From an uncultured bacterium (lineage in GTDB: Bacteria; CAIJMQ01): a DNA stretch of 20,218 nt. The stretch lies in contig CAZNJA010000018.1 in the NCBI GenBank assembly GCA_964573245.1, positions 1-20,218 of the forward strand. The letters are read 5' to 3'. Position numbers and translations under genes: made by a program. The notes below the pieces were generated by a model, which was not told the origin of the DNA, ran no database searches, and saw only the letters and a program-made list of their open reading frames with translations. The stretch's first letter is position 1. Every line of letters begins with the position of its first letter. Shown in pieces: positions 3-16,401 of the stretch.

Positions 3-95
3 TATACAGATGGTGAAGAAGGATTAAAGGTTTTGAAGGTTTTGGAAGAAGCGGAACGAGCTATTTCCTCTAAAAAAGATAAGGTGGAACTATGA
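3..95 (+). CDS. 3' end of a Gfo/Idh/MocA-family oxidoreductase, probably WbpB/WlbA-like UDP-GlcNAcA 3-dehydrogenase (partial; begins before the window)
   Basis: Frame 3 reads YTDGEEGLKVLKVLEEAERAISSKKDKVEL* (TGA 93-95), the typical 'TDGxEGLxVLxVL' C-terminal helix of this family. It overlaps the wbpD-like start (ATGA), and wbpB-wbpD-wbpE is the usual gene set. Confidence 0.65.
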   Translation, partial: YTDGEEGLKVLKVLEEAERAISSKKDKVEL

Positions 96-682
96 ATAAT
101 TCCGAAAAGAAAGATTACTTTGTCCATTCGTCTTCCTGCATTGATGAAAATGTAAAAATCGGCAAAGGAACCAAAATATGGCATTTCTCGCACATTTTAG
201 AAGGCTCGGATGTGGGAGAAAATTGCATCATAGGACAGAATGTTGTAATAGGGCCTGATGTAAAAGTCGGCAATGGTTGCAAGATTCAAAATAATGTATC
301 TTTATATAAAGGGATTACGCTTGAAGATGGAGTTTTTTGCGGACCTTCCTGTGTTTTTACAAATGTCATAAATCCAAGAGCTTTTATTGTAAGGAAGGAA
401 GAATACCGCCCCACTCTACTTAAACAAGGCGCAACAATCGGAGCAAATGCGACTGTAATTTGCGGCATTACTATCGGCAGTTTTGCTTTTATAGGCGCAG
501 GAGCAGTGGTTGCAAAAGATATTCCTGATTTTGGGCTGGTTTATGGTAACCCTGCCAAATTACAAGGGTGGATGTGCGAATGCGGTATTAAGTTAGAGTT
601 TGAAGGAGATAAAGCAATTTGCAAGGTGTGCAAGAAAGAATACGAACAAATAAATAATAACAAAATTAGAAGGAAAAAATAG
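92..682 (+). CDS. wbpD: WbpD/WlbB-like hexapeptide-repeat N-acetyltransferase (UDP-2-acetamido-3-amino-2,3-dideoxy-glucuronate N-acetyltransferase)
   Basis: Left-handed beta-helix repeats with KIWHFSHI, KIQNNVSLY, FCGPSCVFTNVINPRA, GATIGANAT and YGNPAK, plus a C-terminal CECG...CKVC zinc ribbon. Confidence 0.9.
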   Translation: MNNSEKKDYFVHSSSCIDENVKIGKGTKIWHFSHILEGSDVGENCIIGQNVVIGPDVKVGNGCKIQNNVSLYKGITLEDGVFCGPSCVFTNVINPRAFIVRKEEYRPTLLKQGATIGANATVICGITIGSFAFIGAGAVVAKDIPDFGLVYGNPAKLQGWMCECGIKLEFEGDKAICKVCKKEYEQINNNKIRRKK

Positions 683-685
683 ACA

Positions 686-1786
686 ATGAAAATACCTTTA
701 ACAAACTTAAAAAAACAATATCAGACAATAAAAGAAGAAATTGATTCGGCGATTGAGCAAGTAATCACAAAAACGAATTTTATTCTGGGTAACGAAGTGG
801 AAGAATTTGAAAAAGAAATAGCGAAATATTTTGCCGCCAAATTCGCCGTAGGAGTTGCTTCCGGTACGGATGCTTTAATTTTAGCGCTTAAAGCTTTGGA
901 TATCGGCGAAGGGGATGAAGTAATAACAACGCCTTTTACATTCATTGCCACGGCAGAAGCAATTACAAGGGCAGGCGCAAAGCCGGTATTTTGTGATATA
1001 GACGAAAAGACCTATAACATAGATGCCGAGAAAATAGAAGAAAAAATAACACCAAAAACAAAAGCAATTCTTCCTGTTCATCTCTATGGATTGCCATGTG
1101 AGATGGATAAAATCCTATCTTTATCCCAAAAATACAACCTTAAAATAGTAGAAGACGCTGCCCAAAGTTTCGGAGCAAAATATAAAGATAAAAAAGCAGG
1201 TACTATCGGCGACATGGGATGTTTCAGCTTCTTTCCGGCAAAAAACCTGGGCGCTTTCGGCGACGGGGGAATGGTAATTACAAACAACGAAAAAACAATG
1301 CAGAAATTAAAATATTTGAGAAATCACGGACAGACCAGACAATATCATTACACCATGCACGGATTTAACAGTAGATTAGACACATTGCAAGCAGCTATCT
1401 TGAAAGTTAAATTAAACCATATAGATAAATGGATAACAATGCGTCGGGGAAATGCGGAATATTACAAAAAACTTTTCTCGGGAAGCAATGTTACCATCCC
1501 TTTTATTCCTGATTATGTCGAAGATTCCTTTAACTATTATACAATCCGCATTAAAGAAAAAAGAGACGCAGTCCTAACACACTTAAAAGAAAACGGTATA
1601 GCTGCCGCAATATACTACCCGTTGTGCCTGCATCTTCAGGAAGTCTACAAAAGTCCGGGACACGGGTTGGGTGATTTCCCGGTTGCCGAAAAATTGCAAA
1701 ATGAAGTATTGTCGCTTCCTATGTATCCCGAACTTGAGAAAAAAGAAATGGAAGAAGTAGTCACCCAAATAAAAGAAGTATTATGA
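686..1786 (+). CDS. wbpE: DegT/DnrJ/EryC1/StrS PLP aminotransferase, WbpE/WlbC-like
   Basis: Motifs SGTDAL, GDEVITTPFTFIAT, PVHLYG, EDAAQSFG, SFFPAKNLG (PLP lysine), NSRLDTLQAA and LSLPMYP. Adjacent to the wbpD-like gene. Confidence 0.85.
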   Translation: MKIPLTNLKKQYQTIKEEIDSAIEQVITKTNFILGNEVEEFEKEIAKYFAAKFAVGVASGTDALILALKALDIGEGDEVITTPFTFIATAEAITRAGAKPVFCDIDEKTYNIDAEKIEEKITPKTKAILPVHLYGLPCEMDKILSLSQKYNLKIVEDAAQSFGAKYKDKKAGTIGDMGCFSFFPAKNLGAFGDGGMVITNNEKTMQKLKYLRNHGQTRQYHYTMHGFNSRLDTLQAAILKVKLNHIDKWITMRRGNAEYYKKLFSGSNVTIPFIPDYVEDSFNYYTIRIKEKRDAVLTHLKENGIAAAIYYPLCLHLQEVYKSPGHGLGDFPVAEKLQNEVLSLPMYPELEKKEMEEVVTQIKEVL

Positions 1787-2675: not shown

Positions 2676-3689
2676 ATGCCGAAAAAAGATAAGTGTTTAA
2701 TAGTTGCCGAAGTCGCTCAAGCCCATGAAGGAAGCCTGGGAATAGCGCATGCTTTTATAGACGCTATAGCCAGTGCCGGTGCTGATGCGGTAAAGTTCCA
2801 AACGCATATTGCCAGTGAAGAGAGCACTCTACAGGAAGAATGGCGTGTTAAATTTAGCCAGCAGGATGTTACGCGTTATGATTACTGGAAACGAATGGAC
2901 TTCACTGAAGAGCAGTGGAGTGGGCTTAAAAAACATTCGGAGGAAAAAGGGTTATTATTTATCAGTTCGCCATTTTCAATTAAAGCAGTCCAACTTCTTG
3001 CGCGAATCGGCATAGACGCATGGAAAATACCGTCTGGAGAAGTAAACAACACGCCAATGTTTGAAGAGATGGCAAAAACAAAGTTGCCGTTTATTCTGTC
3101 TACCGGAATGAGCTTTATTAAGGAAATTGATGAAGCCGTAAAAAAGGTCAAAAAGTTCAATATCCCATTAACGATTTTACAATGCACAACCGAATATCCT
3201 TGTCCGCCGGAAAAAATCGGTTTAAATATGATACCTTATTTCCGACAGCGTTATGATTGTAGTGTGGGACTGTCAGACCATTCCGGATATATATACCCGG
3301 GGCTTGCAGCAGCAGCGATTGGCGTTGAAATGGTAGAGGTGCATGTCACATTCAGCCGAGAAATGTTCGGTCCGGATGTAAAAGCGTCCTTGACAATCGC
3401 AGAACTGAAACAACTTGCCGAAGGAATCAGGTTCATTGAAAAAATAAAAACTAATCCCGTGGATAAAGATATTATTGCAAAAGATAAATCTAATTTACGC
3501 CAACTTTTCGGAAAAAGTATTGTAGCTAACGCTGATTTACCAAAAGGCAAAATTATAACCAAAGAAGATATAACTTTAAAAAAGCCGGGCAAAGGATTAG
3601 GAGTTGAATATTTGGATACTATTATAGGCAAACGATTGAAAAAACCATTTAAAAAAGACGAATTTTTATCAGAAAGGGATTATGAATAA
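2676..3689 (+). CDS. neuB: N-acylneuraminate (nonulosonate) synthase, NeuB family, with C-terminal SAF/antifreeze-like domain
   Basis: Motifs IVAEVAQAHEG, GADAVKFQ, SSPF, KIPSGE, LSTGMS, QCTTEYP, GLSDHS, EVHVT, and SAF-type 'KGKIITKEDITLKKPGKG'. Confidence 0.92.
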   Translation: MPKKDKCLIVAEVAQAHEGSLGIAHAFIDAIASAGADAVKFQTHIASEESTLQEEWRVKFSQQDVTRYDYWKRMDFTEEQWSGLKKHSEEKGLLFISSPFSIKAVQLLARIGIDAWKIPSGEVNNTPMFEEMAKTKLPFILSTGMSFIKEIDEAVKKVKKFNIPLTILQCTTEYPCPPEKIGLNMIPYFRQRYDCSVGLSDHSGYIYPGLAAAAIGVEMVEVHVTFSREMFGPDVKASLTIAELKQLAEGIRFIEKIKTNPVDKDIIAKDKSNLRQLFGKSIVANADLPKGKIITKEDITLKKPGKGLGVEYLDTIIGKRLKKPFKKDEFLSERDYE

Positions 3690-4857
3690 TAAAAAACGCA
3701 GAAAAATATGTGTCCTTTTGGCGGATAGAGCCAATTACGGCCGCTTAAAACCGGTAATGAAAGCCATATCTGAACATTCACAGTTACAGCTGCAAATTGT
3801 GGCCACAGGCACTATGCCCTTAGAGAGATTCGGCAAAGCAGTTAATGTCGTAGAACGAGATGGTTTTCATATTGACAGCCAGATTTTCATGGAATTGGAA
3901 GGGTCTACTCCTGTTACCATGGCTAAATCAGTAGGATTTGGGATTATCGAATTCGCCAATGAATTCCAGAGATTAAATCCCGATGTAATACTGATTATCG
4001 GTGACAGATACGAAGCATTGGCAGCTGCCATAGCCGCAGCATATATGAACAAATGCATCGTGCATATCCAAGGTGGCGAGGTTTCGGGTTCGATCGATGA
4101 AAGCGCACGCCATGCAATCTCGAAATTAGCACATTTCCATGTACCCAGCACTAAACGCTCTGCTGAATATCTCGTAAGGATGGGCGAAAAAAGGGAACAT
4201 ATCCTTACCATAGGTTGTCCGAGCAGTGATATAGCCCGTCTGCTCAATAAAAAAATATCTTCGAAAATACTAAATCAATCCGGCGGGGGAGCCGTTATCG
4301 ATATATCAAAACCTTTTTTATTGACAATATTGCATCCTACTACCACGGAATTCGGCGATGAGAGATCTCAAATTAAAGAATTATTACGTGCTTTAAATGA
4401 GTTAAAAATACAGACGGTATTATTATGGCCTAATATAGATGCCGGCTCCGACCACATAAGTAAAACCATAAGAATTTTCAGGAATAAATATCAACCTGCT
4501 TGGCTGCGCACCATAACAAATATACATCCTGAGGAGTATCTAAAAGTTCTTTCAAAGACTGTTTGTGCAGTAGGCAACTCCAGCAGCTTTGTAAGAGATG
4601 CCAGTTATTTCGGCACTCCTGTTGTGTTGGCGGGTAACAGACAAAATGGCAGGGAATTGGCTGATAGTGTGACTTGTGTGCCTGTGGTCCGGTCCGCCGG
4701 GATAACTAAGGCAATCCGCAGACAACTTGCACATGGAAAATATAAACCAAGCAATTTATACGGCGACGGATATGTTTCTGAAAGAATTGCAGATAGTTTA
4801 GCCAAAATAAATATTTATATCCAAAAAAGGATATCTTATGTGTCTGAAAAAAAATGA
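3682..4857 (+). CDS. neuC: UDP-N-acetylglucosamine 2-epimerase (hydrolysing), NeuC family
   Basis: Motifs RANYG, GDRYE, HIQGGEVSGSIDESARHAISKLAH, GCP, HPTT, PNIDAG, GNSSS and YGDG. Overlaps the neuB stop. Confidence 0.92.
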   Translation: MNNKKRRKICVLLADRANYGRLKPVMKAISEHSQLQLQIVATGTMPLERFGKAVNVVERDGFHIDSQIFMELEGSTPVTMAKSVGFGIIEFANEFQRLNPDVILIIGDRYEALAAAIAAAYMNKCIVHIQGGEVSGSIDESARHAISKLAHFHVPSTKRSAEYLVRMGEKREHILTIGCPSSDIARLLNKKISSKILNQSGGGAVIDISKPFLLTILHPTTTEFGDERSQIKELLRALNELKIQTVLLWPNIDAGSDHISKTIRIFRNKYQPAWLRTITNIHPEEYLKVLSKTVCAVGNSSSFVRDASYFGTPVVLAGNRQNGRELADSVTCVPVVRSAGITKAIRRQLAHGKYKPSNLYGDGYVSERIADSLAKINIYIQKRISYVSEKK

Positions 4858-5798
4858 ATCCAACTTATAAAGTAATTTATCTCGGACCAAAGGAAGGTTT
4901 TGATGCAGCTTACGAAGTATTAAAATCGCATGCAGAATTAATCAATATCCGCACTGAACAAGAAGAAATTATAAAAGCTTTGAGTTCAGCAGACGCCCTT
5001 CTTGATGCTTCCATGAAAGTGTCAATAACAGATGCTATGATTAAGAATGCACCGCATCTGAAGCTCATTAGTTGTGCAACCACGGGCTCGGACCATATCC
5101 ATCGCACCGAAATTACTCAACGGGGCATTCAAGTTTATACCCTTAAGGAAGACCCCAAAATCATCCAGAATCTTACTCCGGCGGCAGAGTTATCTTGGGC
5201 TCTGCTTTTGGCATGCGCACGTAAACTCACTGCCGCAGCAGAACATGTAAGAAATGGGAATTGGGTACGCGAAGAATTTCCCGGAGTTATGCTTAAAGGC
5301 AAACAGCTCGGTATTGTCGGCTGTGGCAGAATAGGCAACTGGATGGCGCACTATGCACATGCGTTTGGCATGAGAGTTGTAGGTTATGATCCTTATCTTG
5401 CTGAATTTCCCGAGGAAATAAAAAAAACTGACCTTTTATCACTTTTCAAAACATCGGACTTTATCTCGGTTCATGTCCATTTGACCAAAGACACAAAAGG
5501 ATTAATATCCTCTGAACTCTTTTCAAAGATTAAACGGGGAGCTATTTTTATAAACACCTCACGCGGCGGGCTCATTGACGAGACATCTCTACTTGATGCA
5601 CTAAAGTCCGGTCGCATTGCTGCAGCAGGATTAGATGTATTAGACGGCGAACCTGACATTGCCGAGCACTCTCTTGTCAAATACGCCCGCTCACATAGTA
5701 ATCTTATAATTACTCCTCATTGCGGCGGGTTTAGTCCTGATGCGGTAAAGATAGTTTGTAGACATGCTGCAGGCAAAATTATAAAACATTTGACTTAA
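4854..5798 (+). CDS. D-isomer-specific 2-hydroxyacid dehydrogenase (SerA/GhrB-like catalytic core, no ACT domain)
   Basis: TGSDHI, AAEL, GIVGCGRIG (NAD binding), YDPY, INTSRGGLIDE (Arg), LDVLDGEP (Glu) and ITPHCGG (His). ATGA overlap with neuC. Confidence 0.9.
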   Translation: MNPTYKVIYLGPKEGFDAAYEVLKSHAELINIRTEQEEIIKALSSADALLDASMKVSITDAMIKNAPHLKLISCATTGSDHIHRTEITQRGIQVYTLKEDPKIIQNLTPAAELSWALLLACARKLTAAAEHVRNGNWVREEFPGVMLKGKQLGIVGCGRIGNWMAHYAHAFGMRVVGYDPYLAEFPEEIKKTDLLSLFKTSDFISVHVHLTKDTKGLISSELFSKIKRGAIFINTSRGGLIDETSLLDALKSGRIAAAGLDVLDGEPDIAEHSLVKYARSHSNLIITPHCGGFSPDAVKIVCRHAAGKIIKHLT

Positions 5799-5803
5799 TT
5801 CCT

Positions 5804-7348
5804 ATGAATCGCTTAGCAAAATTAGCCAAGGATATTGCTGACTCGGGTATCACAAAGGTTTTTGGAATTCCCGGCAGTGGTGCTAGTCTTGAGTTGATAG
5901 ACCAACTTGAGAAGCATGGAGTTAGATTTTATCTTACTCATTTTGAAGCATCAGCCGCTATTATGGCAGGAACAACCGGTTATTTGACCGGCCATGCAGG
6001 CGTTGCTATATGCATAAAGGGTCCCGGGTTAGCAAATATGGTTCCAGGGCTTGCCTTTTGTCAATTTGAAAATTATCCCCTGGTGGCTATATCAGAGGCA
6101 TACGCTCCAGACACACCTATGACAAAAGCCCATAAACGTATAGACCACGAAAAATTAACAGCTGCTGTAGTTAAAGGAAGAAGAGCACTAGCAGAGCAAG
6201 GTCCTGATTTCAAGAAACTTGCTTTATGGGCTGAAGAAGAGTTGCCGGCGCCTGTGCTTTTTGAACTTCCCAATTCAGTTATTACTAATGAAGAGGCTAT
6301 TCCTATAAATGAGATACATGTTAAAGGGGATATTGAAAATCTTGTTTCAAAATCGCAAAGGCCGGTAATCGTTGCCGGAACTTTAGCTGTCCGCAAAAAA
6401 TGGTCAAAATTCTTAAATAAACTTCATATACCAATTTTTTCAACAGCCGCCGCAAAGGGAGTAGTAGATGAAACACTCCCCCACTCCGCCGGCGTATTTA
6501 CAGGCGCTGGTTTAAAGCTTACTCCCGAAAAAAATATATTGCCTTCAGCTGATTTAGTAATAGGAATAGGACTGCGACCTAATGAAGTATTGCAAGCCAA
6601 ACCTTTTAACAGTCCTACTGTTAATATCACTTTGTCTGCAGATTCTTTAGCTGAAAAAGCTTTTGGTTTTATTGCAACAGCCGGTTGTGAAGCCGGAGAA
6701 AAAATGTTTGAAATACTCATCGAAAAAAAATGGGGATTAGAGAAGCTGGCTTCTTGTTTAAAAGAATTACGCCACCATATGTTAGACACTTCATTTCTAC
6801 CTGCTCACGTATTCGAATTACTAGAACAACATTTTGCTCATAATGTCCGTATTGTTATGGATACGGGCAATTTCTGCACTATTGGTGAACACATGTGGCA
6901 CAGCCGAGAAACCTCGCAGTGCATTTTATCCGGACAGGCAAGATATATGGGAACTGCTCTTCCAGTGGGAACAGCAGCTTCACTTCATACACCGGAAATA
7001 CCCACTGTAGTTATTGCAGGTGACGGCGGCATCGGACCATTTATTTCGGAGATAAAATTAGCAGTCCAAAACCATCTTCCTCTTTTATTGATACTTATGA
7101 GCGACGGGGGATTTGGCTCCATACGTATCCGGGCCCGTAAAGACGGTTTAACACTTAAACCATTGACTATAGATAATCCTTCCTGGGTTTCTGTCTTAGC
7201 CGGGTTTGGCGTTCCGGGATTTCGCACTAAAACTCTTAAAGAATTCCGAAACCGCCTTGAAAAATGGTCTCCTCAGTCTGGACCTTTATTTTTGGAGGTT
7301 CCATTTGCCCCTGATATTTATGAGCAAATGGTATATGATATTCGCTAA
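5804..7348 (+). CDS. Thiamine diphosphate-dependent enzyme, acetolactate synthase/decarboxylase superfamily; substrate unknown
   Basis: VFGIPG, catalytic Glu in HFEASAAIMA, GPGLAN, KGVVDE, ADLVIGIG, MGTALP and the ThDP/Mg motif GDGG...SDGGFG. Confidence 0.88.
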   Translation: MNRLAKLAKDIADSGITKVFGIPGSGASLELIDQLEKHGVRFYLTHFEASAAIMAGTTGYLTGHAGVAICIKGPGLANMVPGLAFCQFENYPLVAISEAYAPDTPMTKAHKRIDHEKLTAAVVKGRRALAEQGPDFKKLALWAEEELPAPVLFELPNSVITNEEAIPINEIHVKGDIENLVSKSQRPVIVAGTLAVRKKWSKFLNKLHIPIFSTAAAKGVVDETLPHSAGVFTGAGLKLTPEKNILPSADLVIGIGLRPNEVLQAKPFNSPTVNITLSADSLAEKAFGFIATAGCEAGEKMFEILIEKKWGLEKLASCLKELRHHMLDTSFLPAHVFELLEQHFAHNVRIVMDTGNFCTIGEHMWHSRETSQCILSGQARYMGTALPVGTAASLHTPEIPTVVIAGDGGIGPFISEIKLAVQNHLPLLLILMSDGGFGSIRIRARKDGLTLKPLTIDNPSWVSVLAGFGVPGFRTKTLKEFRNRLEKWSPQSGPLFLEVPFAPDIYEQMVYDIR

Positions 7349-7361
7349 AAGGAAATAAAAA

Positions 7362-8372
7362 ATGTCTGAAAAGCATATTCTAATTGTTGGAAGCGGCAGT
7401 GTGGGTAAGCGACATGCACGCAATTTGTCAGCCATGGGTTGCAGGATTTCCTGCATTGACCCAAAACCCGGACGTCAAAAAGAACTTTCAGCAGAAATAC
7501 CCGTTGAAGCTACATACGATAACATGAAGCAAGCTTCCCAAAATAAAAGCGACTTTGGTGTTGTTATTTGTTCCCCGCCTCTATACCACGTCGAGCAAAC
7601 TCTTACGGCTATTGGCTGGCAACTTCCTATATTATTGGAAAAACCGATTTCCCCTGATTTGAAAAGCGCGCTCAAATTGGCAGATAGAGTTAAAAAGGGA
7701 AAAATCCCGCTCTTATTAGGATATACCTGGCGTTGGTGGAAACCATTAAAGCGTGTTCGCCAATTGCTCGCAAAAAAGCATATAGGCAAACTTTTATATG
7801 TTCAGTTCGTCATGTCAGCTCATCTTGCAGATTGGCATCCGTGGGAAAATTACAAGGATTTTTTCATGGCAAGCAAATCTCTCGGAGGAGGAGCGCTTTT
7901 AGACGAAAGCCATTGGGTTGATTTGATGATTTGGTTCTTTGGCATGCCAAAAAGTGTATTTGCGAGAATAGAAAAGATCAGCAATCTGAAAATCGAGACC
8001 GATGATAACGTCAATATGTTTATAGAGTATCCGAAAGGATTAAGAGTAAGTATACACCTTGACCTTTTCGGAAGACCTCACGAAAAATATATTTCTTTTG
8101 TGGGTGAAAAAGGGACACTGCGTTGGTCGGCAGACCCAAACCAAATTTCCATAGGACGCCAAATGACGCATTCATGGAAAAAAATACCTTACGCCTGTGA
8201 AAGGAACGATATGTTTGTCGACGTGGCAAAAGAATTCCTTCATGTCATAAAAGGCGGAAAAATCAAGACATGTTCCATTGAGGACGGGGTTAAAGTCCTA
8301 CAAGTTATTGAAGCCGCACGAAGAAGTCATTCTATAAAAAGTATAGTAACTCTAAAAACAAAGGGAAATTAA
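7362..8372 (+). CDS. Gfo/Idh/MocA-family NAD(P)-dependent oxidoreductase
   Basis: IVGSGSVGKRH Rossmann motif, LLEKP, GGGALLDESHWVD and C-terminal 'EDGVKVLQVI'. AAGGA Shine-Dalgarno upstream. Confidence 0.9.
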   Translation: MSEKHILIVGSGSVGKRHARNLSAMGCRISCIDPKPGRQKELSAEIPVEATYDNMKQASQNKSDFGVVICSPPLYHVEQTLTAIGWQLPILLEKPISPDLKSALKLADRVKKGKIPLLLGYTWRWWKPLKRVRQLLAKKHIGKLLYVQFVMSAHLADWHPWENYKDFFMASKSLGGGALLDESHWVDLMIWFFGMPKSVFARIEKISNLKIETDDNVNMFIEYPKGLRVSIHLDLFGRPHEKYISFVGEKGTLRWSADPNQISIGRQMTHSWKKIPYACERNDMFVDVAKEFLHVIKGGKIKTCSIEDGVKVLQVIEAARRSHSIKSIVTLKTKGN

Positions 8373-9082
8373 TGGCTTTTGAGGGAAAGAAAATTTTAGC
8401 CGTGGTGCCCGCACGAGGGGGAAGTAAATCCATACCCTATAAGAATCTTTGTAAGGTCGGTGGTATATCTCTGATTTGCCGTACTGCCGGGGTTATAGAC
8501 TCTCTACCATGGATTGATAAAGCAATCCTTTCTACCGACGATGAGAAAATTGCATCGGAGGGAAAAAACTGCAGACTTGAAGTCCCGTTTCTTAGACCGG
8601 CCGAATTAGCAAGTGATTCCGCAACTTCTGCCGACATGTGGAAGCACGCATGGTTGAACTGCGAAAAAACATATGGATGCAAGTATGATATATCCATCCT
8701 GCTGGAACCAACCAGTCCACTGCGTATTCCTGAAGATATAGAGCGTACGGTCAAGGTCTTGTTAAAAGGAGATTGCAAAGCAGCAGCTACAGTAAGTAGG
8801 ATGCCGGCACATTTTACGCCACATAAAACTTTACTTGTCAAAGACGGCCGTATTGATTTTTATATGCCTAAAGGCAAACAATACAGCATTCGACAGGAAA
8901 TCCCCGAGTTTTATCATCGTAACGGAGTTTGTTATGCGGTAACAAGAGATACTTTGTTGGAACATGGAAATATCATTGAGAAAGATTGCGCCGCGGTTAT
9001 TATCAAGCGGCCGGTAGTAAATATTGATGAACCCTTTGAACTTGAATTGGCTGAATGGCTTTTATCAAGACAACAAAAATGA
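8372..9082 (+). CDS. neuA: Acylneuraminate cytidylyltransferase (CMP-nonulosonate synthetase)
   Basis: VPARGGSKSIPYKN, LSTDD, PFLRPAELASD, LEPTSPLR, RQ...NG and NIDEPFE. TAATG overlap with the upstream gene. Confidence 0.93.
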   Translation: MAFEGKKILAVVPARGGSKSIPYKNLCKVGGISLICRTAGVIDSLPWIDKAILSTDDEKIASEGKNCRLEVPFLRPAELASDSATSADMWKHAWLNCEKTYGCKYDISILLEPTSPLRIPEDIERTVKVLLKGDCKAAATVSRMPAHFTPHKTLLVKDGRIDFYMPKGKQYSIRQEIPEFYHRNGVCYAVTRDTLLEHGNIIEKDCAAVIIKRPVVNIDEPFELELAEWLLSRQQK

Positions 9083-11748
9083 AAGATAGTCTTTCTAAAG
9101 TAAATTTAATACCTTTAAAAAACAATATTAATAAATCATTACGTAAGTTACAGCTATGGCAGAAAAAATATTGGCTCGATTTTTTAATAGTTATCCTTTT
9201 TCTTATAGTTGCCGTGCTGTATTATAACCAAAGGATAGGACATGACAAAGTTATAACGAACCTCAAAGGTGATGCAGCGATGGTCGCAAGCGTCTTCGCA
9301 GGCCGTGACTATCGGAGTGATTTTCAGGGCGACCCGTTGTTGGGTCAAGCAAAAACTAGTGATTCATATATTTGTGTAGCTTACTGGTATGTAAGTTTTA
9401 TGCACCGCCGATTTGGTCTCCCCTACGGTAATGCTTACGTTACTATGCTAATCCCCATCGTCTTTCTGCATTTATTGGGATTTTATGTCCTTGGCAAAGT
9501 CTTGTGTCATTCCCGAATTCTTTCTATTTTATTAGCTTTTTGTTGTTTATTATACATACCTTTCGAAACATGGGGCGAAATCTGGGGTTTAACTCGTGAG
9601 CCTCTGAATCGCGTCGCAATCGGTTCCCTCATTGGTTTTTTCTGGGCTATGGCTGTTTACTATGGGCGTAAGCCCAAAATGCGGTTAGCCATCATGGCAG
9701 CGATGGGGTTATCTGTATGGATTCATCCCGCTGCAATTCCTGTTCTTGGCTTTTCTCTTTGGCTGGGTTTTTGGGCCATGCGCGCTGAGGATGAAACACC
9801 CCAAAAATTTATCATGAACATGTTCATACTCGCGGGGGTGATTCTCCTGATTTTGTTGCCCTATATACTGCAATATTCCTCTAGTTTTGGCTATCCGCAC
9901 TCGCCGCCGGAACTTAAGAAAAAATTGCTTGAAATAATGCGTTCTTCTTTTATCGACGGGTACACCCGTAATGAATGGACAGCTATTAAATTGTTTTTTT
10001 ATCAATTTCTTTTACAGAAACCATTTATAAGCGCAGCCATAATCGCATTGTTCGGAAGTTTTTTTATTGCCACTGCCAAAGAACGCCGAACAATTTTACA
10101 ATTGGCACTTATAGCTGTAGGGGTTATATTTGTGTCAAACGTAATATTTCTACTCGACCATTATCTTGCTGCGAGAGCCGAACGTATTCCTTTAGAACTT
10201 GATTTTGTACGCGGAAACCGTTTCTTAATACCATTGTCTTTTATCGTCCTTTTTTATTCGGCAGCAATTTTTTGGCGCAAATTCGGGATGAAATTGGGGT
10301 TACCTATCTCTATTCTCATCTCTGGCTTTCTATTTTTTAACCTGCAACCGAATATAAAGGACATGTATGCGAAATTGAATCAAGGCTATAACACTTTGAC
10401 ACAAGAAGGAAGTCCGGCCAATAAATCTGACATCGAAATGCTTGACTGGCTGCGCAACGAAACACCCAAAAAGACATTTATAACGGTAGTTTTCAACGAT
10501 TTATTAGACAACACGGTGCGCTATGTCAGTATGCGGCCTTTATCTTTTTCATTTAAAGACTCCTGTATGTTTAGTTATTTCGATTGGGAAAAGTTATTAG
10601 AATTCCGACAAAAAAAGTCTATCTATGATCAAGCCATAGAACATCAAAATATAAAAATGCGATTTCATCTTGCCGTTAAAACAGCCATTCTTTTTGGCTC
10701 TGATTTATTGGTTATTGATAAGGTGCTGTTTGACGAGTCCTATCGAGAGGTTCAAAACGCTATATTATGGGAGAATGTCAAATATGCCGTGATTGACCTC
10801 GGTCAGATAAACGACCTTTCAATTGATGCGGAGCAACCTGAATTTAAGATGTTGACGACGCGTAGTGCCTACGACCGCGAGGTCCAACCGTGTGTGTACT
10901 ATATCCCACCCGACAAGAACAAGTCGTATCCATTAATTGTCTATCTTCACACATGGTCCGGAAGAGCTTATGATGACAGTTATGTTTTTCAGATGTTTAA
11001 TTTGTCCAAAGAACACGGCTATGCGATATTGTCTCCCAATTTCAGGGGCAAGAACATACGCCGGGAATCAACCGGCTCAGAACTGGCAGTTGCTGATATT
11101 ATATCTGCTGTAAGGAAACTGTGTGATGAATATTCTATCGACACCAAACAGATTCACCTTGTCGGAGTTTCCGGCGGCGGATATATGTCTCTTCTTATGG
11201 CAGGATGGCTTCCGGAACTTTGGAAAACGGTTACAGCCTGGTGCCCGATTTTCGACCTTGCGGAATGGAGCCAGGAGTGCGAATCATATGGCAAGTATAT
11301 AAAAAAATCCATAGATATAGATCGCAAGACTTCAATAGCCGAAGGGCCCTATTTTACCGAACTTGCTAAACTTCGTTCTCCGTCAGAATGGTTGAAACAT
11401 GCGAAGGAACTCCCGATACATATCTTTGCCGGCATCGATGATAATTCTGTGCCTGTCAGCCATTCCATCAAGGCCTTTAATATATTGGCTATGCAGGAAG
11501 ACAGGTTATCCGACGAAATTATTGAGAAGATAACGAGGGATAGAATAATTCCTGCTGATTTACAATCGGATATTGGAAAAACTATCCATACAAGCAAAGA
11601 CGAAGCTAATGAGAAATATTACGGGATCAATCGTAAGGTGTTACTACATAAAGTATCCAATAATGTACAATTGACTATTTTTGACGGCGCACATGAAATG
11701 TTGCCTGAGGAAAACTTTAAACGGATAATTACCTATTCGCAAGATTGA
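9079..11748 (+). CDS. Multipass membrane protein (about 11 TM, GT-C/ArnT-PMT-like) fused to a C-terminal alpha/beta hydrolase (S9 peptidase/esterase-like)
   Basis: Start set at ATG 9079 (ATGA overlap with the neuA stop) rather than 9055. About 11 hydrophobic segments by eye, acidic first loop, and a 'MLDWLRNETP...LWENVKYAVIDL' soluble domain. Then PLIVYLHTWSG, PNFRG, GVSGGG (Ser 11170-11172), GIDD and DGAHE (His 11692-11694). The hydrolase call is firmer than the GT-C call. Confidence 0.7.
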   Translation: MKDSLSKVNLIPLKNNINKSLRKLQLWQKKYWLDFLIVILFLIVAVLYYNQRIGHDKVITNLKGDAAMVASVFAGRDYRSDFQGDPLLGQAKTSDSYICVAYWYVSFMHRRFGLPYGNAYVTMLIPIVFLHLLGFYVLGKVLCHSRILSILLAFCCLLYIPFETWGEIWGLTREPLNRVAIGSLIGFFWAMAVYYGRKPKMRLAIMAAMGLSVWIHPAAIPVLGFSLWLGFWAMRAEDETPQKFIMNMFILAGVILLILLPYILQYSSSFGYPHSPPELKKKLLEIMRSSFIDGYTRNEWTAIKLFFYQFLLQKPFISAAIIALFGSFFIATAKERRTILQLALIAVGVIFVSNVIFLLDHYLAARAERIPLELDFVRGNRFLIPLSFIVLFYSAAIFWRKFGMKLGLPISILISGFLFFNLQPNIKDMYAKLNQGYNTLTQEGSPANKSDIEMLDWLRNETPKKTFITVVFNDLLDNTVRYVSMRPLSFSFKDSCMFSYFDWEKLLEFRQKKSIYDQAIEHQNIKMRFHLAVKTAILFGSDLLVIDKVLFDESYREVQNAILWENVKYAVIDLGQINDLSIDAEQPEFKMLTTRSAYDREVQPCVYYIPPDKNKSYPLIVYLHTWSGRAYDDSYVFQMFNLSKEHGYAILSPNFRGKNIRRESTGSELAVADIISAVRKLCDEYSIDTKQIHLVGVSGGGYMSLLMAGWLPELWKTVTAWCPIFDLAEWSQECESYGKYIKKSIDIDRKTSIAEGPYFTELAKLRSPSEWLKHAKELPIHIFAGIDDNSVPVSHSIKAFNILAMQEDRLSDEIIEKITRDRIIPADLQSDIGKTIHTSKDEANEKYYGINRKVLLHKVSNNVQLTIFDGAHEMLPEENFKRIITYSQD

Positions 11749-11776: not shown

Positions 11777-11812
11777 TATAATAGCCATTACGACTCTCAG
11801 TATAATAGACAT
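11777..11812 (+). repeat. Imperfect 12-bp direct repeat, each copy starting with TATAAT
   Basis: TATAATAGCCAT at 11777-11788 and TATAATAGACAT at 11801-11812 (11/12 identical). The second copy runs into the ATG at 11811. Confidence 0.55.
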
Positions 11813-13229
11813 GAAAATACTTTTATTACAGCCCTTTATTCCTGATGACGATACGATGTGGGGTAGATTTTATAAGGGCAAAGGTTTTGTCCCTCCTATT
11901 GGTTTATTGTCTATCGCAAGTTATTTGGCTAGTAAAGGTTATGATATTTCGATCTGCGATCCTCAATTAGAAAAATTTTCCAAGCATGATTTGGAAAAAT
12001 TTTTATCAGATAATAACTTTGATGTAATCGGTATACCGGCTTTTACTAATTCTCTCGGACACGCTTTTAATACGGCCGATATGTGTAGGAGAATATTGCC
12101 CGAATCAAAGATAATTTTTGGCGGAGTGCACGCAACAATTATGCCTAGACAGGTGCTGGAAGATTGCCAATCAATTGATGTGGTAGTTATTGGAGAAGGC
12201 GAATATGTTTTGGAAGATTTAATCAATGCTTTTAGTAACAACAAATCAATTGATAATATTCAGTCAATAGCTTATCGCGGAGTTAATAATCAAGTTATAA
12301 TTAACCAAAGGTCTAAGCCGATTGATAACTTAGACGATTTGCCCCTGCCAGCTTATCACTTGATTGATATGTCTCAATATATTCCTCATCCTACCCAATA
12401 TAAGCGTTTGCCTAATTTTCCGGTTATTACCCAGAGAGGTTGTCCATTTAACTGTTCTTTTTGCAGTGCCCATTTGATACATGGGAGAAAAGTACGATTT
12501 CGTAGTGCAGATAATGTTCTTGAAGAATTAAAATTATTAAAACATAAGTATGGTGCCCGGGGAATATATTTTCAAGACAGCACCTTTACAATTAATCGGA
12601 ATTATTGTAAAGAATTGTTTAATAAAATGATTGAGCAAAAATTAAATCTTGTTTGGGCTTGTAATACAAGAGTCGATTGCGTTAATGATGATTTGTTAAA
12701 ATTGATGAAAAGAGCCGGTTGTTGGTCCATAGGTTATGGAGTTGAATCATACAACCAAAAATCTCTTGATTTGTTAAATAAAAGTATAACTGTAGCTCAG
12801 ATTGAAAAAGCTATTGCTTTGACCCATAAAAACAGAATAAACTGTTTGACCAGTTTTATTCTTGGTATACCGGGTGAAGATTATAGTGATAGTTTAAAGA
12901 CAATTGAATTCGCCAAAAAACTAGCCGGCCAAATCGCTTTATTTTATCCGCCAGTGCCCTACCCCGGCACTGATTTGGAAACTATATGCAAAAAAGACGG
13001 TGGTTTCAGAATGACAAATAATTGGATGGATTACACAGCCGTAAATTTTGCAAATCCTATTTATATTAATCCGAAAATAGGTCAGGCAAATATGCAGAAA
13101 TTGCTTGAATTAGCTTATCGTTCTTATTATTTGACACCAAAAGTATTGTGGAACAATTTAACAGCCATTAACAGTTTGGATGACATAAAAAGATATTACA
13201 GAGCCGTACGGGCAATTTCGGGAATTTAA
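11811..13229 (+). CDS. Cobalamin-binding radical SAM protein (class B methyltransferase-like)
   Basis: N-terminal B12-binding domain ([22 protein letters not shown]), then [10 protein letters not shown] (CxxxCxxC), FQDSTF, GVES and FILGIPGE. Confidence 0.9.
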
Positions 13230-13266
13230 CTGTTTTAATCATTTTTATTGTCACAAGGAATTAGTT

Positions 13267-14352
13267 ATGTATAGTGTTAATCATATTTTTGTTAATGTAA
13301 AGTATCTTTTCAATGTGTTGAGAAGAAAACCCCTGTTTTTTATGCGTTTAGTAAAAAATTATATTCTGGCGGTTATTCATCCTACCCGCCCACCGTTGAG
13401 ATTCGCGGATATTGCAATTACTTATAGATGTACCATGCATTGCGAACATTGCTCGGCTTCGGTTATGCTTGATAAACGCAGAACAGAATTAACCATCGAA
13501 GAATACCGTATTATTGCGGATAAACTCATCAAGGCAGGGCTTTTACTCATCAATATTACAGGAGGAGAACCGACCATACGGGACGACTTGAAAGAAATTG
13601 TTAAGGCATTTCAACCCGGCAAGATTTTTATTGCTGTACAAACGAATGCCTCTCTTTTGACGGAAGAACGATTGCGGGAATTAAAGTCAGCAGGTGTAGA
13701 CGGAATAAATGTCAGTATTGACTCCGCTGACGCTAAAACACATGATACTTTCCGTAACTCCCCGGGCGCCTTTAAAAAGGCGGTAAAATTAGTTAAAACA
13801 GCAACTCGGATGGGATTTAAGGTAGGGATAAGTTATGTGTTATCGCGGGAGAATCTTTATTCTGAAGACCGCCGAAAGATTGTTGCTTTTAGTAAAAAAT
13901 ACGGAACATTGCTTAATTACAATCTGGCTTCGCCTATCGGTTTCTGGAGGGGGAAATTAGACAAGTTGCTCAGGGATAAAGACAGGCAATATTTGTTAAA
14001 ATTACTGGAAGAATACCCACATTCGAAAACTGATTTTGAAACAAATTATTATACCAAAGGTTGCGGTGCTATTAAGGAAAAAGTGTATATCAGCCCGTAT
14101 GGCGATGTGATGCCGTGTCCATTTATACAGGTAGGTTTCGGGAATATTTTAATTGACGATTTTGAAAATATCCGGGACAGGGCATTCCAATATAAGTATT
14201 TCAGGTCATATCATAAACGGTGTCTTGCAGCCGAAGATTTGGATTTTATAAAAAATACTATTTGTTACGATAAAACAGCAGTTTTAGAAAAACTGCCTGT
14301 AGATCACATGAAAGCGTTTAAATCACGGAAAATAGCATTAGGCAAAAGATAG
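13267..14352 (+). CDS. Radical SAM protein with C-terminal twitch/SPASM-type auxiliary cluster domain
   Basis: ITYRCTMHCEHC, ITGGEP, QTNA, VSIDS and HDTFR. C-terminal GCGA...YISPYGDVMPCPF...CL. Confidence 0.88.
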   Translation: MYSVNHIFVNVKYLFNVLRRKPLFFMRLVKNYILAVIHPTRPPLRFADIAITYRCTMHCEHCSASVMLDKRRTELTIEEYRIIADKLIKAGLLLINITGGEPTIRDDLKEIVKAFQPGKIFIAVQTNASLLTEERLRELKSAGVDGINVSIDSADAKTHDTFRNSPGAFKKAVKLVKTATRMGFKVGISYVLSRENLYSEDRRKIVAFSKKYGTLLNYNLASPIGFWRGKLDKLLRDKDRQYLLKLLEEYPHSKTDFETNYYTKGCGAIKEKVYISPYGDVMPCPFIQVGFGNILIDDFENIRDRAFQYKYFRSYHKRCLAAEDLDFIKNTICYDKTAVLEKLPVDHMKAFKSRKIALGKR

Positions 14353-14359
14353 AACACAT

Positions 14360-15430
14360 ATGTACGAAAAATTCGCGAATTATTTTATATGTCCCAAATG
14401 CCATGCATCATTGAATATACTGAAGGTGTTTTCTAAAAATTCGGATGATATCCTTGACGGAATTTTGGGATGTGAAAAAGACCACTATTACCCTATTATT
14501 GACGGCATTCCCCGTTTATTGGAAATCAAATCAATTCTCAGATTTGTTGACAGCAACAGATTAAACATATTTATTAATAAGTATTTTAAAGATATTCCTG
14601 TTGTGTTCGTCGATAATATCAATAAACAAAAAGAAATTGCTAAATCTGTGGGTATTAATACCGCTAATTTTTATGCGGATATGTGGAAAAGATATGATAC
14701 TGATTTTGATATGGACGATGATAGAGAATTTAAACGTTTAATCGGCAATAATTTAGAGTTCGGGTTATTAAAAAATCTGTCGGCAATTGATGTCGGTGCT
14801 GGCGCCGGACGGTATGTGAAACCACTGCTGTCAGCCGGGGTAAAAGAGATAATTTGTATGGATTTGGGAAACGCGATTACCCTAGCTTACAGGAAATATC
14901 ACGATGATAGGCGGGTGTTATGCATCCAAGCAGATATCTATCGGCTTCCGTTTGAAAATTATTTTGACTTTGTTTTGTGTGTCGGGGTTCTCCAGCATCT
15001 GCCGGATTCTTCAGACGGTTTTGTTAAACTCGCAAAACTGGCCAATCAACACGGCCAACTTCTTGTATGGGTGTATGGCAATTCGCCGATAAAGAATATT
15101 TTAATTGTTCTAAGAAAACTTTGCCGCCGGTTTCCTCTAACATGGCTTTGGAACCTAAGCGGTTTTTTTGCCTCTTTCAGATGGTTTGCTTCAAAATTAC
15201 ATGTATGGCTGCCGACACTCGGCGGTTATAATGAAGGGTATAGCTTCCATTATTTCCGCACAAATACCTTTGATCACCTTTCTGCTCCAATTATTGATTT
15301 TTTTCACAGGGACACGTTAGTAGAATGGCTTAAAAAAACAAACATAAGTGAATACGAACTAATTGAACGTTTTCCAAGGCATGCTAACGCGAGTTGGATT
15401 ATAAAAGCCCGAAAAACTTTGGAACCATGA
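14360..15430 (+). CDS. Class I SAM-dependent methyltransferase with N-terminal Trm112-like zinc domain
   Basis: FICPKC...GILGCEKDHYYPIIDGIPRLL (Trm112-like), then IDVGAGAGRY, QADIYRLPF, FDFV and GVLQHLPD. Confidence 0.85.
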   Translation: MYEKFANYFICPKCHASLNILKVFSKNSDDILDGILGCEKDHYYPIIDGIPRLLEIKSILRFVDSNRLNIFINKYFKDIPVVFVDNINKQKEIAKSVGINTANFYADMWKRYDTDFDMDDDREFKRLIGNNLEFGLLKNLSAIDVGAGAGRYVKPLLSAGVKEIICMDLGNAITLAYRKYHDDRRVLCIQADIYRLPFENYFDFVLCVGVLQHLPDSSDGFVKLAKLANQHGQLLVWVYGNSPIKNILIVLRKLCRRFPLTWLWNLSGFFASFRWFASKLHVWLPTLGGYNEGYSFHYFRTNTFDHLSAPIIDFFHRDTLVEWLKKTNISEYELIERFPRHANASWIIKARKTLEP

Positions 15431-16389
15431 TTAGTCAAGACAAGGATTTATCAAAAACCATTATTAAAACCGTATCCGTGAAATGTCCCGTTTGCGGAAC
15501 GGGTAGATTCCGAAAGGTCGCAACAGGATACGATTTTGAATATGATACATCCGCGTGCATCTACCAATTTGTCCGTTGCCTTAAATGTAAGGTGCTGTAT
15601 CTCAATCCAAGACCGGACATCTCATCACTCGAAAAGATTTATCCGATGGAATATGCTCCGTATGCATTTGAAACCGGCCGTAATCTGACTCTCCGAATCC
15701 GTAGCCTTTTAGAGCGTAGAAGAATTTTGGATTTTCGCCGGCTTTTTAAATCCGGGAGTGATATTATTGATGCCGGATGTGGTGGAGTTGAGTTCCTTAA
15801 AAGTTTTCGCCAGTTTGGGAGACCTGATTGGCGATTATGGGGAAATGACATTTCCCCGCAGGTTTGCACGCACCTTCGCCGGCAGGGATTTCTTTCTATT
15901 CAGGGCAGGTTTGAAGATATTGACATGCCTGACGGTAGTTTTGACGGCATTATTTTAAAACAGGTTTTGGAACACTTGAAATCGCCCATGGCAGTTTTAC
16001 AAAAGTCCAGCCAGCTATTGCGCAAAGGGGGATTCTTAATTATCGAGACACCTAATTCTGACTCTTGGGATGCCAAAATATTTAAGAAACATTATTGGGG
16101 CGGATATCATTTCCCGAGGCATTGGACAATCTTTGATTGCCAGACATTACGCGAAGCGGCTGGCAAAGCAGGATTTGTTTTTGTGCGGCGGAAATACATG
16201 TTATCCCCCTCTTTCTGGGTTCAATCCATCCATCATCTATTGAAAGACAACAATGCTCCCTTCTGGATGTATAAACCGTTTACTCACAAAAACCCTTTGG
16301 TTATGAGCTTGGCAGTCTTATTAGATTGCATTCAAATGTCCCTCGTCGGAAAGACTTCTAATTTGCAAATTATATTCAAAAAGCCGTAA
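15427..16389 (+). CDS. Class I SAM-dependent methyltransferase with N-terminal zinc ribbon
   Basis: Start set at ATG 15427 (ATGA overlap). CPVC...CLKC, LNPRP, IDAGCGG, QVLEHL, ETPN and HFPRHW. Confidence 0.85.
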   Translation: MISQDKDLSKTIIKTVSVKCPVCGTGRFRKVATGYDFEYDTSACIYQFVRCLKCKVLYLNPRPDISSLEKIYPMEYAPYAFETGRNLTLRIRSLLERRRILDFRRLFKSGSDIIDAGCGGVEFLKSFRQFGRPDWRLWGNDISPQVCTHLRRQGFLSIQGRFEDIDMPDGSFDGIILKQVLEHLKSPMAVLQKSSQLLRKGGFLIIETPNSDSWDAKIFKKHYWGGYHFPRHWTIFDCQTLREAAGKAGFVFVRRKYMLSPSFWVQSIHHLLKDNNAPFWMYKPFTHKNPLVMSLAVLLDCIQMSLVGKTSNLQIIFKKP

Positions 16390-16401
16390 AATGTTTCTGA
16401 A

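Follow-up and report, generated by a model that had tools for sequence, protein, structure and literature searches.

Introduction

Nonulosonic acids are key surface sugars in host mimicry, in phage and immune recognition and in biofilm matrices, and to our knowledge those known from bacteria vary in their stereochemistry and in their N- and O-substituents, not in their carbon backbone. Here we analyse a cassette of six genes that lies in a 20,218-nt stretch of DNA (the window; contig C18:1-20218 of a 1.46-Mb, 93%-complete genome with 38% GC and a tmRNA, which marks it as bacterial). The genes encode, in this order, a nonulosonate synthase (NeuB), a hydrolysing UDP-GlcNAc 2-epimerase (NeuC), a D-2-hydroxyacid dehydrogenase (2HADH), a thiamine diphosphate (ThDP)-dependent enzyme, a sugar dehydrogenase of the Gfo/Idh/MocA family (Gfo) and a cytidine monophosphate (CMP)-nonulosonate synthetase of the NeuA/ElaB kind (CMPt). 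The reading that we favour, tentatively, is that the cassette is one operon for a CMP-activated nonulosonate of the N-acetylneuraminic acid (Neu5Ac) type, whose skeleton would be remodelled by C-C chemistry of the ThDP enzyme on a carbonyl made by a dehydrogenase.

One point of reference is the canonical route to CMP-Neu5Ac through NeuC, NeuB and NeuA. All three activities are also encoded here, but three extra enzymes are conserved between neuC and neuA; and while the window NeuC scores above the cut-off of its equivalog model, the window NeuB and CMPt score below theirs.

A second is ElaABC, the CMP-legionaminic acid (Leg) 8-epimerase of Acinetobacter baumannii KL49 and V. vulnificus. As its available text describes it, ElaA is a Gfo/Idh/MocA protein with catalytic K91 and H181, for which oxidation of the C8 hydroxyl of CMP-Leg5,7Ac2 is proposed from structures, docking and knockouts, ElaB is a CMP-transferase and ElaC is a short-chain dehydrogenase/reductase (SDR) that reduces the 8-ketone; the V. 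vulnificus genes are numbered consecutively as VV0315 (Gfo), VV0316 (CMPt) and VV0317 (SDR), the nearest Protein Data Bank (PDB) entry to ElaA is 3EZY, and the search model for ElaB was 6IFD (PMC13656337). As far as that text goes, the Gfo gene stands directly before the CMPt gene, as it does here, and a second NAD(P) enzyme takes part in the pathway, as it does here. K91 and H181 of ElaA fall at positions equivalent to K94 and H184 of the window Gfo; 3EZY is among the PDB matches of the window Gfo, and 6IFD is the top match of the window CMPt. In contrast to ElaABC, the cassette has no SDR, and has 2HADH and the ThDP enzyme in its place; and whereas ElaABC draws on a Leg precursor pathway, the cassette offers NeuC and NeuB only, without Leg dehydratase, aminotransferase or acetyltransferase.

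ThDP enzymes of glycan clusters provide the third point of reference. In the available parts of the sources, these enzymes take an acyl anion from a 2-oxoacid and add it to a nucleotide-activated keto-sugar, a reductase acting afterwards, and for some of them the preferred donors are long hydroxylated 2-keto-3-deoxy acids (PMC9306805, PMC12247030). Structures of PpYerE and JanthE exist, and cyclohexane-1,2-dione hydrolase, a member of the same superfamily, cleaves C-C bonds (PMC12247030). By these accounts YerE/YerF and ErwE/ErwF place an enzyme of the ThDP decarboxylase superfamily beside oxidoreductases in a surface-glycan cluster, as here, but their sugar is a CDP-3,6-dideoxy-4-ketohexose whereas that of the cassette is predicted to be a CMP-ulosonic acid. 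In the flagellin-modification cluster sfmABCDE of Shewanella oneidensis, which belongs to a setting of nonulosonate glycosylation, the gene of a NeuB-domain protein lies beside those of an IlvB-like ThDP enzyme, a reductase and a methyltransferase (PMC3765264). There, however, the ThDP protein has 581 aa, the reductase is of the 3-oxoacyl-ACP reductase type, and the available description mentions no Gfo, 2HADH or CMPt; the two are likened by description only. Our literature search found no account of a neuB/neuC/2HADH/ThDP/Gfo/neuA cassette, the sfm cluster and ElaABC being nearest, and we know of no branched nonulosonate.

Results

Gene order and conservation of the cassette

A preliminary description of the window had proposed that six closely spaced genes, free of NeuD, LegB/LegC and PseB/PseC, form an expanded nonulosonate cassette in which the three extra genes point to a remodelled sialic-acid-like sugar. 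The list of open reading frames (ORFs) agrees with its coordinates and with its spacing of overlaps or at most 13 nt (Table 1): the junctions are, in order, -8, -4, +5, +13 and -1 nt, and the six genes are translationally coupled in the window, where all ORFs of at least 196 aa lie on the + strand. Pfam and NCBIfam annotation gives no homologue of NeuD, LegB/C or PseB/C within 2676-9082, and domain annotation of the same interval gives no SDR and no Leg dehydratase.

Table 1. Genes of the cassette, followed by other features of the window.
Feature	Position	Strand	Size and evidence
NeuB-type nonulosonate synthase	2676..3689	+	337 aa; PF03102 3e-67 and C-terminal SAF domain PF08666
NeuC-type hydrolysing UDP-GlcNAc 2-epimerase	3682..4857	+	391 aa; PF02350 3.9e-62
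D-2-hydroxyacid dehydrogenase (2HADH), PGDH-like	4854..5798	+	314 aa; PF02826 7e-56
ThDP-dependent enzyme, acetolactate-synthase superfamily (decarboxylase/carboligase)	5804..7348	+	514 aa; all three TPP_enzyme domains
Gfo/Idh/MocA NAD(P)-dependent sugar dehydrogenase (Gfo)	7362..8372	+	336 aa; three Pfam domains
CMP-nonulosonate synthetase (CMPt), NeuA/ElaB-like cytidylyltransferase	8372..9082	+	236 aa; PF02348 (CTP_transf_3)
Hexapeptide acetyltransferase	92-682	+	upstream of cassette, beyond Wzz gene
DegT aminotransferase	686-1786	+	upstream of cassette, beyond Wzz gene
897-aa ORF	9055-11748	+	overlaps CMPt gene by 28 nt

Our survey of other genomes used an alignment of the ThDP family as query against species-representative genomes and gave 120 confirmed loci; counts refer to the best 80 of these 120, the window proteins were compared with them by tblastn, and each denominator is the number of loci with room to show the feature. 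(A scan of genome contigs with the single ThDP protein had given 78 pattern matches, 0 of them confirmed, and the alignment query succeeded instead.) The ThDP family had 730 matches among 7999 candidates scored; the 119 matches listed, our own protein excluded, have 493-530 aa and are 48-65% identical, and the ThDP homologues in the 80 loci are 37-53% identical. Going by the titles of their records, the carriers spread over more than ten phylum-level groups plus one archaeon, a Methanoregula: Deltaproteobacteria/Thermodesulfobacteriota, Alpha-, Beta- and Gammaproteobacteria, Bacillota, Gemmatimonadaceae, Nitrospira, Acidobacteriota, Rokuibacteriota, Binatia, Planctomycetales and Marinimicrobia.

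Across these loci 2HADH lies immediately upstream of the ThDP gene in 67 of 69, with Gfo downstream in 65 of 68 and CMPt downstream in 57 of 63. No gene of the four-gene core 2HADH-ThDP-Gfo-CMPt is missing from 48 of 55 loci, and the full set of six is found in 34 of 55; NeuC is found within 8 kb upstream in 42, and NeuB in 40, of 60. An order of genes that is repeated in dozens of unrelated genomes goes far beyond what chance would give. A pathway of NeuC, NeuB and NeuA (plus NeuD) alone, giving unmodified Neu5Ac, does not describe loci that keep the complete core so regularly. The proposal that homologues of the extra genes stay with neu genes across genomes is thus upheld by the survey, and conservation of the core supports the idea that the three genes belong with them and point to a remodelled sialic-acid-like sugar. 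Their description as one unit inserted between neuC and neuA does not hold in the same way: the genes do belong there, but the cassette is modular, with Gfo and CMPt resembling ElaA/ElaB, and 2HADH and CMPt recurring together in nonulosonate clusters that have no ThDP gene. Among the parts of the cassette, only the ThDP enzyme is peculiar to it.

None of the remaining window genes travels with the cassette in the 80 loci; a DegT gene, for instance, lies near it in 3 of 80. Of 22 upstream ORFs tested, 13 are Methyltransf_23 genes, which in many loci stand between neuC and 2HADH. A larger conserved locus surrounds the cassette in many of the proteobacterial cases. There the flanks (L001, L004-L006, L009 and others) encode an ABC exporter in fused form (26 loci), a polysaccharide deacetylase (18) and a sulfotransferase (13), together with three proteins of 253, 470 and 486 aa without clear family, of which the 470-aa one has a faint GT-B similarity. 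Genes inserted in the atypical loci L006, L016, L018, L056 and L080 gave no mechanistic hint, and an apparent 2HADH-ThDP fusion in L052 (a 909-aa ORF) was rejected as a reading-frame artefact of a high-GC locus, the two tblastn matches being in different frames.

At E<=1e-60 the ThDP gene was not found in 40 relatives of the source organism, 3 of them of the same genus, and the GC of the six cassette genes is 0.395-0.429 against 0.384 for the genome. On these two grounds the cassette was probably acquired horizontally.

The ThDP enzyme

The best NCBIfam model for the ThDP enzyme gives 179 bits against a cut-off of 509, and every curated model stays below its cut-off; the AlsS models NF006378 and TIGR02418 give 148.5 (cut-off 510) and 133.8 (cut-off 551.1). 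In an alignment of 18 family members Glu48, GDG406-408 (G406-D407-G408) and Asp434 are invariant, with the ThDP/Mg motifs and the cofactor-activating Glu intact. We ranked the PDB against a profile of 18 family members. Catabolic acetolactate synthases come first at 163-191 bits (the K. pneumoniae entries 186, the top match, an ancestral reconstruction, 191.5), followed by E. coli acetohydroxyacid synthase I (AHAS I; 149), CsmA and BbmA (147 and 142), carboxyethylarginine synthase (142), pyruvate oxidase (120), 2-hydroxyacyl-CoA lyases (116-118), 5AHK (114.5) and benzaldehyde lyase (111-113). Entry 5AHK, whose PDB title reads 'acetolactate synthase II', we take to be the YerE homologue PpYerE. 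This ranking, headed by catabolic acetolactate synthases, argues that the enzyme would act most like a carboligase that decarboxylates a small 2-oxoacid. By the same profile it does not belong to the YerE-like subclass. At 514 aa it compares with 566-579 aa in the solved catabolic acetolactate synthases. A tblastn search of the source genome at E<=1e-5 found no paralogue, and the ESM Atlas look-up returned generic 'thiamine pyrophosphate-binding' clusters only.

Could the enzyme break a C-C bond rather than make one? In such a scheme, which we consider unlikely, Gfo and/or 2HADH would oxidise hydroxyls of the C7-C9 tail to an alpha-hydroxyketone, a 1,2-dione or a 2-oxoacid of the (CMP-)nonulosonate, and the ThDP enzyme would cleave or decarboxylate this intermediate to a C7/C8 ulosonic or ulosaric acid. 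Enzymes of the 2HADH and ThDP families canonically use 2-hydroxy and 2-oxo acids, and here the two genes are nearly always adjacent; moreover, in inositol catabolism IolD, of the same ThDP superfamily, follows the Gfo-family enzyme IolG, and IolG is the best NCBIfam match of the window Gfo. The ThDP superfamily also includes C-C cleavers, as the available text on cyclohexane-1,2-dione hydrolase attests (PMC12247030). In a uronic-acid form of the scheme, the input would be a UDP-HexNAc uronic acid, 2HADH would act on the C8 hydroxyl beside a C9 carboxylate, the ThDP enzyme would remove CO2 and Gfo would adjust the resulting aldehyde. A UDP-sugar dehydrogenase at the probable upstream continuation of the locus speaks for this form, but it sits with WbpB/D/E-like genes in a pathway of its own, and such a gene is near only 5 of 80 cassette loci, so that chain shortening, the first of three options in the preliminary description, finds little support in this form. 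Cleavage also sits poorly with a ThDP family that is nearest to acetolactate synthases, which are carboligases, and not to lyases or hydrolases, and we know of no natural truncated sialic acid.

The 2-hydroxyacid dehydrogenase and its pairing with CMPt

The best NCBIfam model for 2HADH is that of phosphoglycerate dehydrogenase (PGDH; TIGR01327), with 223 bits against a cut-off of 454. It retains Arg, Glu and His at the catalytic positions, and 'NTSRGG', 'GEP' and 'TPHCGG' align with PGDH structures. In PGDH the arginines of 'VRS' and 'RAGxGxDN' bind substrate; these are replaced in 2HADH, where the corresponding stretches, 'DASMK' and 'CATTGSDHI', are conserved in 54 family members. Because the motif arginines are replaced, we conclude that 2HADH is, as judged by its motifs, not a PGDH. 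The source genome has a separate 2HADH paralogue on contig C95.

A search for longer relatives of CMPt gave 47 proteins, in which it is fused to several partners: a methyltransferase in 9, a HAD phosphatase in many, NeuB in 3, and NeuC, GNAT, SDR or an aminotransferase in 1 each. Three further fusions (P0126, P0128, P0141) join it to a 2HADH. With the window 2HADH, the dehydrogenase half of P0128 shares 31% identity (154 bits, E 4e-47); neither has the two motif arginines, and both contain a 'TGxxHI' stretch. A scan of genome contigs with P0128 matched its CMPt part only, at 4 loci. In metagenomes, where we took 80 of 476 relatives (L089-L168), a 2HADH is fused to CMPt or lies at most 700 nt from it in 41 of the 58 marine loci with room for it. 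The 80 loci contain a NeuB-like gene in 44 cases, Gfo in 4 and a ThDP gene in 0, and many of the NeuB-like genes are short and only 23-31% identical; a short gene of this kind is the usual neighbour of the CMPt-2HADH unit. Pairs and fusions of CMPt and 2HADH, found in this analysis, are uncharacterised and common. Since 2HADH and CMPt are fused or adjacent so often, we connect the dehydrogenase with the sugar pathway itself: the pattern suggests that it belongs to a type of dehydrogenase tied to nonulosonate pathways, and that it probably acts on the sugar acid and not in the supply of a small donor.

In one of these metagenome loci, L148 (1291-11580), NeuB shares 61% and NeuC 65% identity with the window protein, more than in most cassette loci; behind them, a single tblastn span matches CMPt, a methyltransferase and 2HADH, and there is no ThDP gene.

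The same pairing bears on a further scheme, in which a C2-C4 hydroxyacyl or keto unit (glycolyl, lactyl or acetoin-like) would come from 2HADH and the ThDP enzyme and decorate a Neu5Ac that is normal in other respects. Further decoration of the sugar is common in these loci, with the deacetylase in 18 and methyltransferases in many. No acyltransferase is conserved with the core, however, the fusion of this 2HADH type to CMP-synthetases points to action on the sugar itself, and the pairing of Gfo with CMPt would go unexplained. Supply of a substituent had already been ranked low for want of an acyltransferase in the cassette, and the wider survey leaves it very unlikely.

The Gfo dehydrogenase and its pairing with CMPt

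In Gfo, Lys94 of the EKP motif and His184 are invariant in 24 family members. The IolG model scores highest among NCBIfam models (103.6 bits), and that of xylose 1-dehydrogenase reaches 39.8 bits. An AlphaFold2 model (pLDDT 92.7) has as Foldseek neighbours secondary-alcohol dehydrogenases of sugars and cyclitols, among them the sialic-acid oxidoreductases YjhC and RgNanOx and the nucleotide-sugar dehydrogenase WlbA, with query-normalised TM-scores of 0.78-0.88 for many families, which do not discriminate between sugar dehydrogenases.

In genome G003, the gene of the best non-orthologous match to Gfo (99 bits) immediately precedes that of a CMPt-class III aminotransferase fusion, within a cluster of the pseudaminic acid (Pse) type. 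This pair, a Gfo gene and a 689-aa fusion (L084, contig C51 of G003, 7060-10118, - strand), predicts an extra amino group that would be placed on a CMP-activated nonulosonate by way of a keto intermediate. Because the pairing is seen in the cassette, in ElaA-ElaB and in L084, a Gfo gene beside a CMPt gene is best read as a recurring device that would make a keto group on an activated nonulosonate.

If Gfo makes such a ketone, 2HADH might simply reduce it again. One stereocentre of CMP-Neu5Ac would then be oxidised by Gfo and re-reduced by 2HADH to give an epimeric sialic acid, and the ThDP enzyme would be an accessory, for example in making an oxoacid for nicotinamide recycling. WbpB-type Gfo enzymes do recycle NAD with 2-oxoglutarate, and in the metagenome locus L093 a Gfo gene lies directly upstream of a CMPt-2HADH fusion, with no ThDP gene, which parallels the order Gfo-CMPt-SDR. 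ElaABC, as far as described in the text at hand, is a precedent (PMC13656337). Yet the ThDP gene is conserved as strictly as the others and is translationally linked to them, and a dedicated 514-aa ThDP enzyme, which none of the 80 loci of the ThDP-free type contains, is left unexplained by an accessory role; moreover, Gfo occurs in only 4 of those 80 CMPt-2HADH loci, so there is no general pairing of 2HADH with Gfo. We regard plain epimerisation as rather improbable.

NeuB, NeuC and CMPt

NeuB scores 315 bits with TIGR03569, under the cut-off of 399.65, and 215 bits with the PseI model; the gene in the cassette is the sole NeuB gene of the source genome. NeuC scores 355 bits with TIGR03568, over the cut-off of 235.9, a model that presumably also spans epimerases of the Leg pathway. 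The solved structures nearest to CMPt are CMP-Neu5Ac synthetases, with 6IFD at 88.8 bits and 1EYR, from Neisseria, at 86.7 bits. The PseF model gives CMPt 104.5 bits against a cut-off of 205.7, and the PARGGSK motif is conserved. Its homologues in the cassettes are 47-64% identical, the most distant locus, L080, having 40%.

A CMPt part that is 52% identical to the window CMPt was also met in P0122, a gene model of 1449 aa from Symbiodinium microadriaticum that is labelled GNE and has NeuB, Epimerase_2, ABC_tran and CTP_transf_3 domains. A merged operon of bacterial type, a contaminant and a transfer into the dinoflagellate are three possible readings of this model.

The persistence of CMPt matters for the most literal form of the shortening idea, in which the ThDP enzyme would decarboxylate Neu5Ac at C1 to a C8 2-deoxy-aldose and Gfo would oxidise this to an aldonic acid. 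Neu5Ac is a 2-oxoacid and formally a ThDP substrate, and Gfo enzymes can oxidise hemiacetals; the window Gfo has its match to the xylose 1-dehydrogenase model. But the product would lack the C1 carboxylate and the C2 hemiketal that CMPt needs, in loci where CMPt is kept in 57 of 63 and is coupled to Gfo, and the resulting acid, being 2-deoxy, would not be a substrate for 2HADH. We give this scheme hardly any credence.

Surroundings of the cassette

Another contig of the same genome, C19, has at its end the genes of a UDP-sugar dehydrogenase and a Gfo protein, together with a fragment of 27 residues that is 93% identical to the window acetyltransferase; this end is the probable upstream continuation of the window contig. 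Because it holds these matching genes and the acetyltransferase fragment, the acetyltransferase and DegT genes upstream of the cassette are most likely part of a WbpA/B/D/E-like route to a UDP-diacetamido-uronic acid. Their assignment as LegC/LegH or PseC/PseH was set aside in favour of that route in view of the content of C19. On the same contig (L081), 99-2598 encodes a Cas12a-like C-terminus (RuvC_1, NUC) followed by Cas4, Cas1 and Cas2, all within a few kb of the point where the glycan locus probably begins. At 4271-6777 (-) a leucyl-tRNA synthetase appears as two overlapping ORFs (504 aa and 345 aa), which would mean a frameshift, a mistake of assembly or a gene that is split.

Downstream of the cassette the window encodes the 897-aa protein, two radical-SAM enzymes, three methyltransferases, a GT2 glycosyltransferase, an asparagine synthase and a Wzx flippase; past the window, the same contig continues with a 482-aa protein of weak GT-B/Capsule_synth similarity and then Wzy. 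Residues 1-600 of the 897-aa protein have no Pfam match, and this region, with its negative AT skew, may encode a membrane domain; the C-terminus is an S9/BD-FAE alpha/beta-hydrolase. The protein could be a transferase or an esterase for the new sugar; its ORF is not conserved alongside the cassette in the other loci. The 482-aa protein (L082, contig C18, 1180-2628, between Wzx and Wzy; Epimerase_2 E 1.5e-5, Capsule_synth E 1.3e-3) is a candidate GT-B transferase for a CMP-activated sugar. Within this Wzx/Wzy glycan locus, 11811-17142 (+) contains a B12-binding radical-SAM enzyme, a radical-SAM/SPASM enzyme and three class I methyltransferases, the first of which (14360-15430) has an N-terminal Trm112-like zinc-ribbon match (NF038101, 32.8 bits); the group suggests C-methylation or other radical chemistry on the glycan.

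Three DNA sequencing runs contain at least half of the sampled words, all labelled salt marsh metagenome, and no RNA sequencing run was listed as matching them.

Discussion

How could these six enzymes work together? We derive the following steps from family membership, and with them the substrates, the step order, the attacked position and the product. NeuC would hydrolyse and epimerise UDP-GlcNAc to N-acetylmannosamine, NeuB would condense this with phosphoenolpyruvate to a 2-keto-3-deoxy acid of the Neu5Ac type, and CMPt would activate the acid with CTP. Gfo, acting like ElaA, would oxidise a hydroxyl of the exocyclic C7-C9 chain to a carbonyl. A carbonyl would also be the site at which the ThDP enzyme makes a new C-C bond, and 2HADH, working on the sugar itself, would bring the product to its final redox state. 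The C7-C9 chain is the most plausible site for the carbonyl, since oxidation of the CMP-sugar at C4 would favour loss of CMP.

Two variants of this scheme differ in what the ThDP enzyme joins. If the sugar is the acceptor, the keto-CMP-sugar would take a C2 or C3 unit from a small 2-oxoacid, following the logic of YerE, to give a branched or chain-extended nonulosonate. If the sugar is the donor, the free nonulosonate, itself a 2-keto-3-deoxy acid, would be decarboxylated and joined to a small carbonyl acid, and 2HADH would regenerate a 2-oxo acid for CMP activation, giving a C10 or C11 ulosonic acid; in this variant each enzyme is used in its canonical chemistry. We favour C-C formation because the cofactor motifs of the ThDP enzyme are intact, because its nearest relatives are carboligases that use pyruvate, and because ThDP enzymes of glycan clusters are known to make acyl-branched sugars (PMC9306805, PMC12247030). 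Oxidation, C2 branching and reduction had been put forward in the preliminary description on the model of YerE; in outline this is the best supported of its three options, while the assignment to a YerE-type enzyme gives way to another subclass.

Several observations weigh against this picture. The ThDP enzyme falls outside the YerE-like subclass, 5AHK scoring 114.5 bits against 186-191 bits for catabolic acetolactate synthases. In 18 of 60 loci, mostly of marine Rhodospirillaceae, NeuB and NeuC are missing within 8 kb, and the core stands alone in these marine genomes amid unrelated genes, the genomes having 5-8 CTP_transf_3 genes. NeuB does occur elsewhere in all 5 of the 5 genomes with a stand-alone core that were tested; genome G005 has only two CTP_transf_3 genes, one of which is that of the module, and its best NeuB lies about 34 kb off on the same contig. 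All 80 loci come from metagenome-assembled genomes, and the cassette is known in its carriers from sequence alone. The CMPt-2HADH pairs occur without any ThDP gene, none of the 80 metagenome loci having one, and therefore the dehydrogenase has a role independent of C-C chemistry. A 2HADH normally needs a carboxylate beside the reacting carbon, which no hydroxyl of C7-C9 offers; this speaks against the acceptor variant in particular, and would better fit the donor variant or a role directed at C1/C2. The likeness of Gfo to ElaA rests on gene order, catalytic positions and shared PDB relatives and not on a direct comparison of sequences. Finally, as far as sequence alone goes, the ThDP enzyme may instead cleave a C-C bond.

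With these reservations, we propose that in this cassette a natural pathway may, for the first time, be seen to rebuild a sialic acid skeleton: a C-C bond would be created by the ThDP enzyme, and the product, a branched or extended C10-C11 CMP-ulosonate, would be displayed at the surface across the carriers, as one case of a wider toolkit of CMPt partners. We advance this broader proposal with slightly more hesitation than the scheme on which it builds. Nonulosonate biosynthesis as such is well known, and a ThDP tailoring step would be a new class within it. If the product is indeed a sialic acid with an altered skeleton, it would be the first of its type. Biocatalysis, too, would have a practical interest in a ThDP enzyme whose substrate is a nine-carbon keto acid or the polyhydroxylated ketone of a nucleotide sugar. 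The six genes form a defined set that is amenable to direct expression and assay.

More generally, an operon so conserved and so widespread, with a C-C enzyme of the ThDP type in it, predicts a new class of nonulosonates. Beside it stand two further building blocks that are uncharacterised and common, the 2HADH fused to CMPt and the Gfo gene beside a CMPt-aminotransferase fusion. Taken with ElaABC, these building blocks suggest a general scheme in which the CMP-sugar is the form that is tailored. If true, nonulosonate pathways would draw on a combinatorial toolkit that gives a CMP-synthetase one partner or another: a Gfo, an SDR, a 2HADH, an aminotransferase or a methyltransferase.

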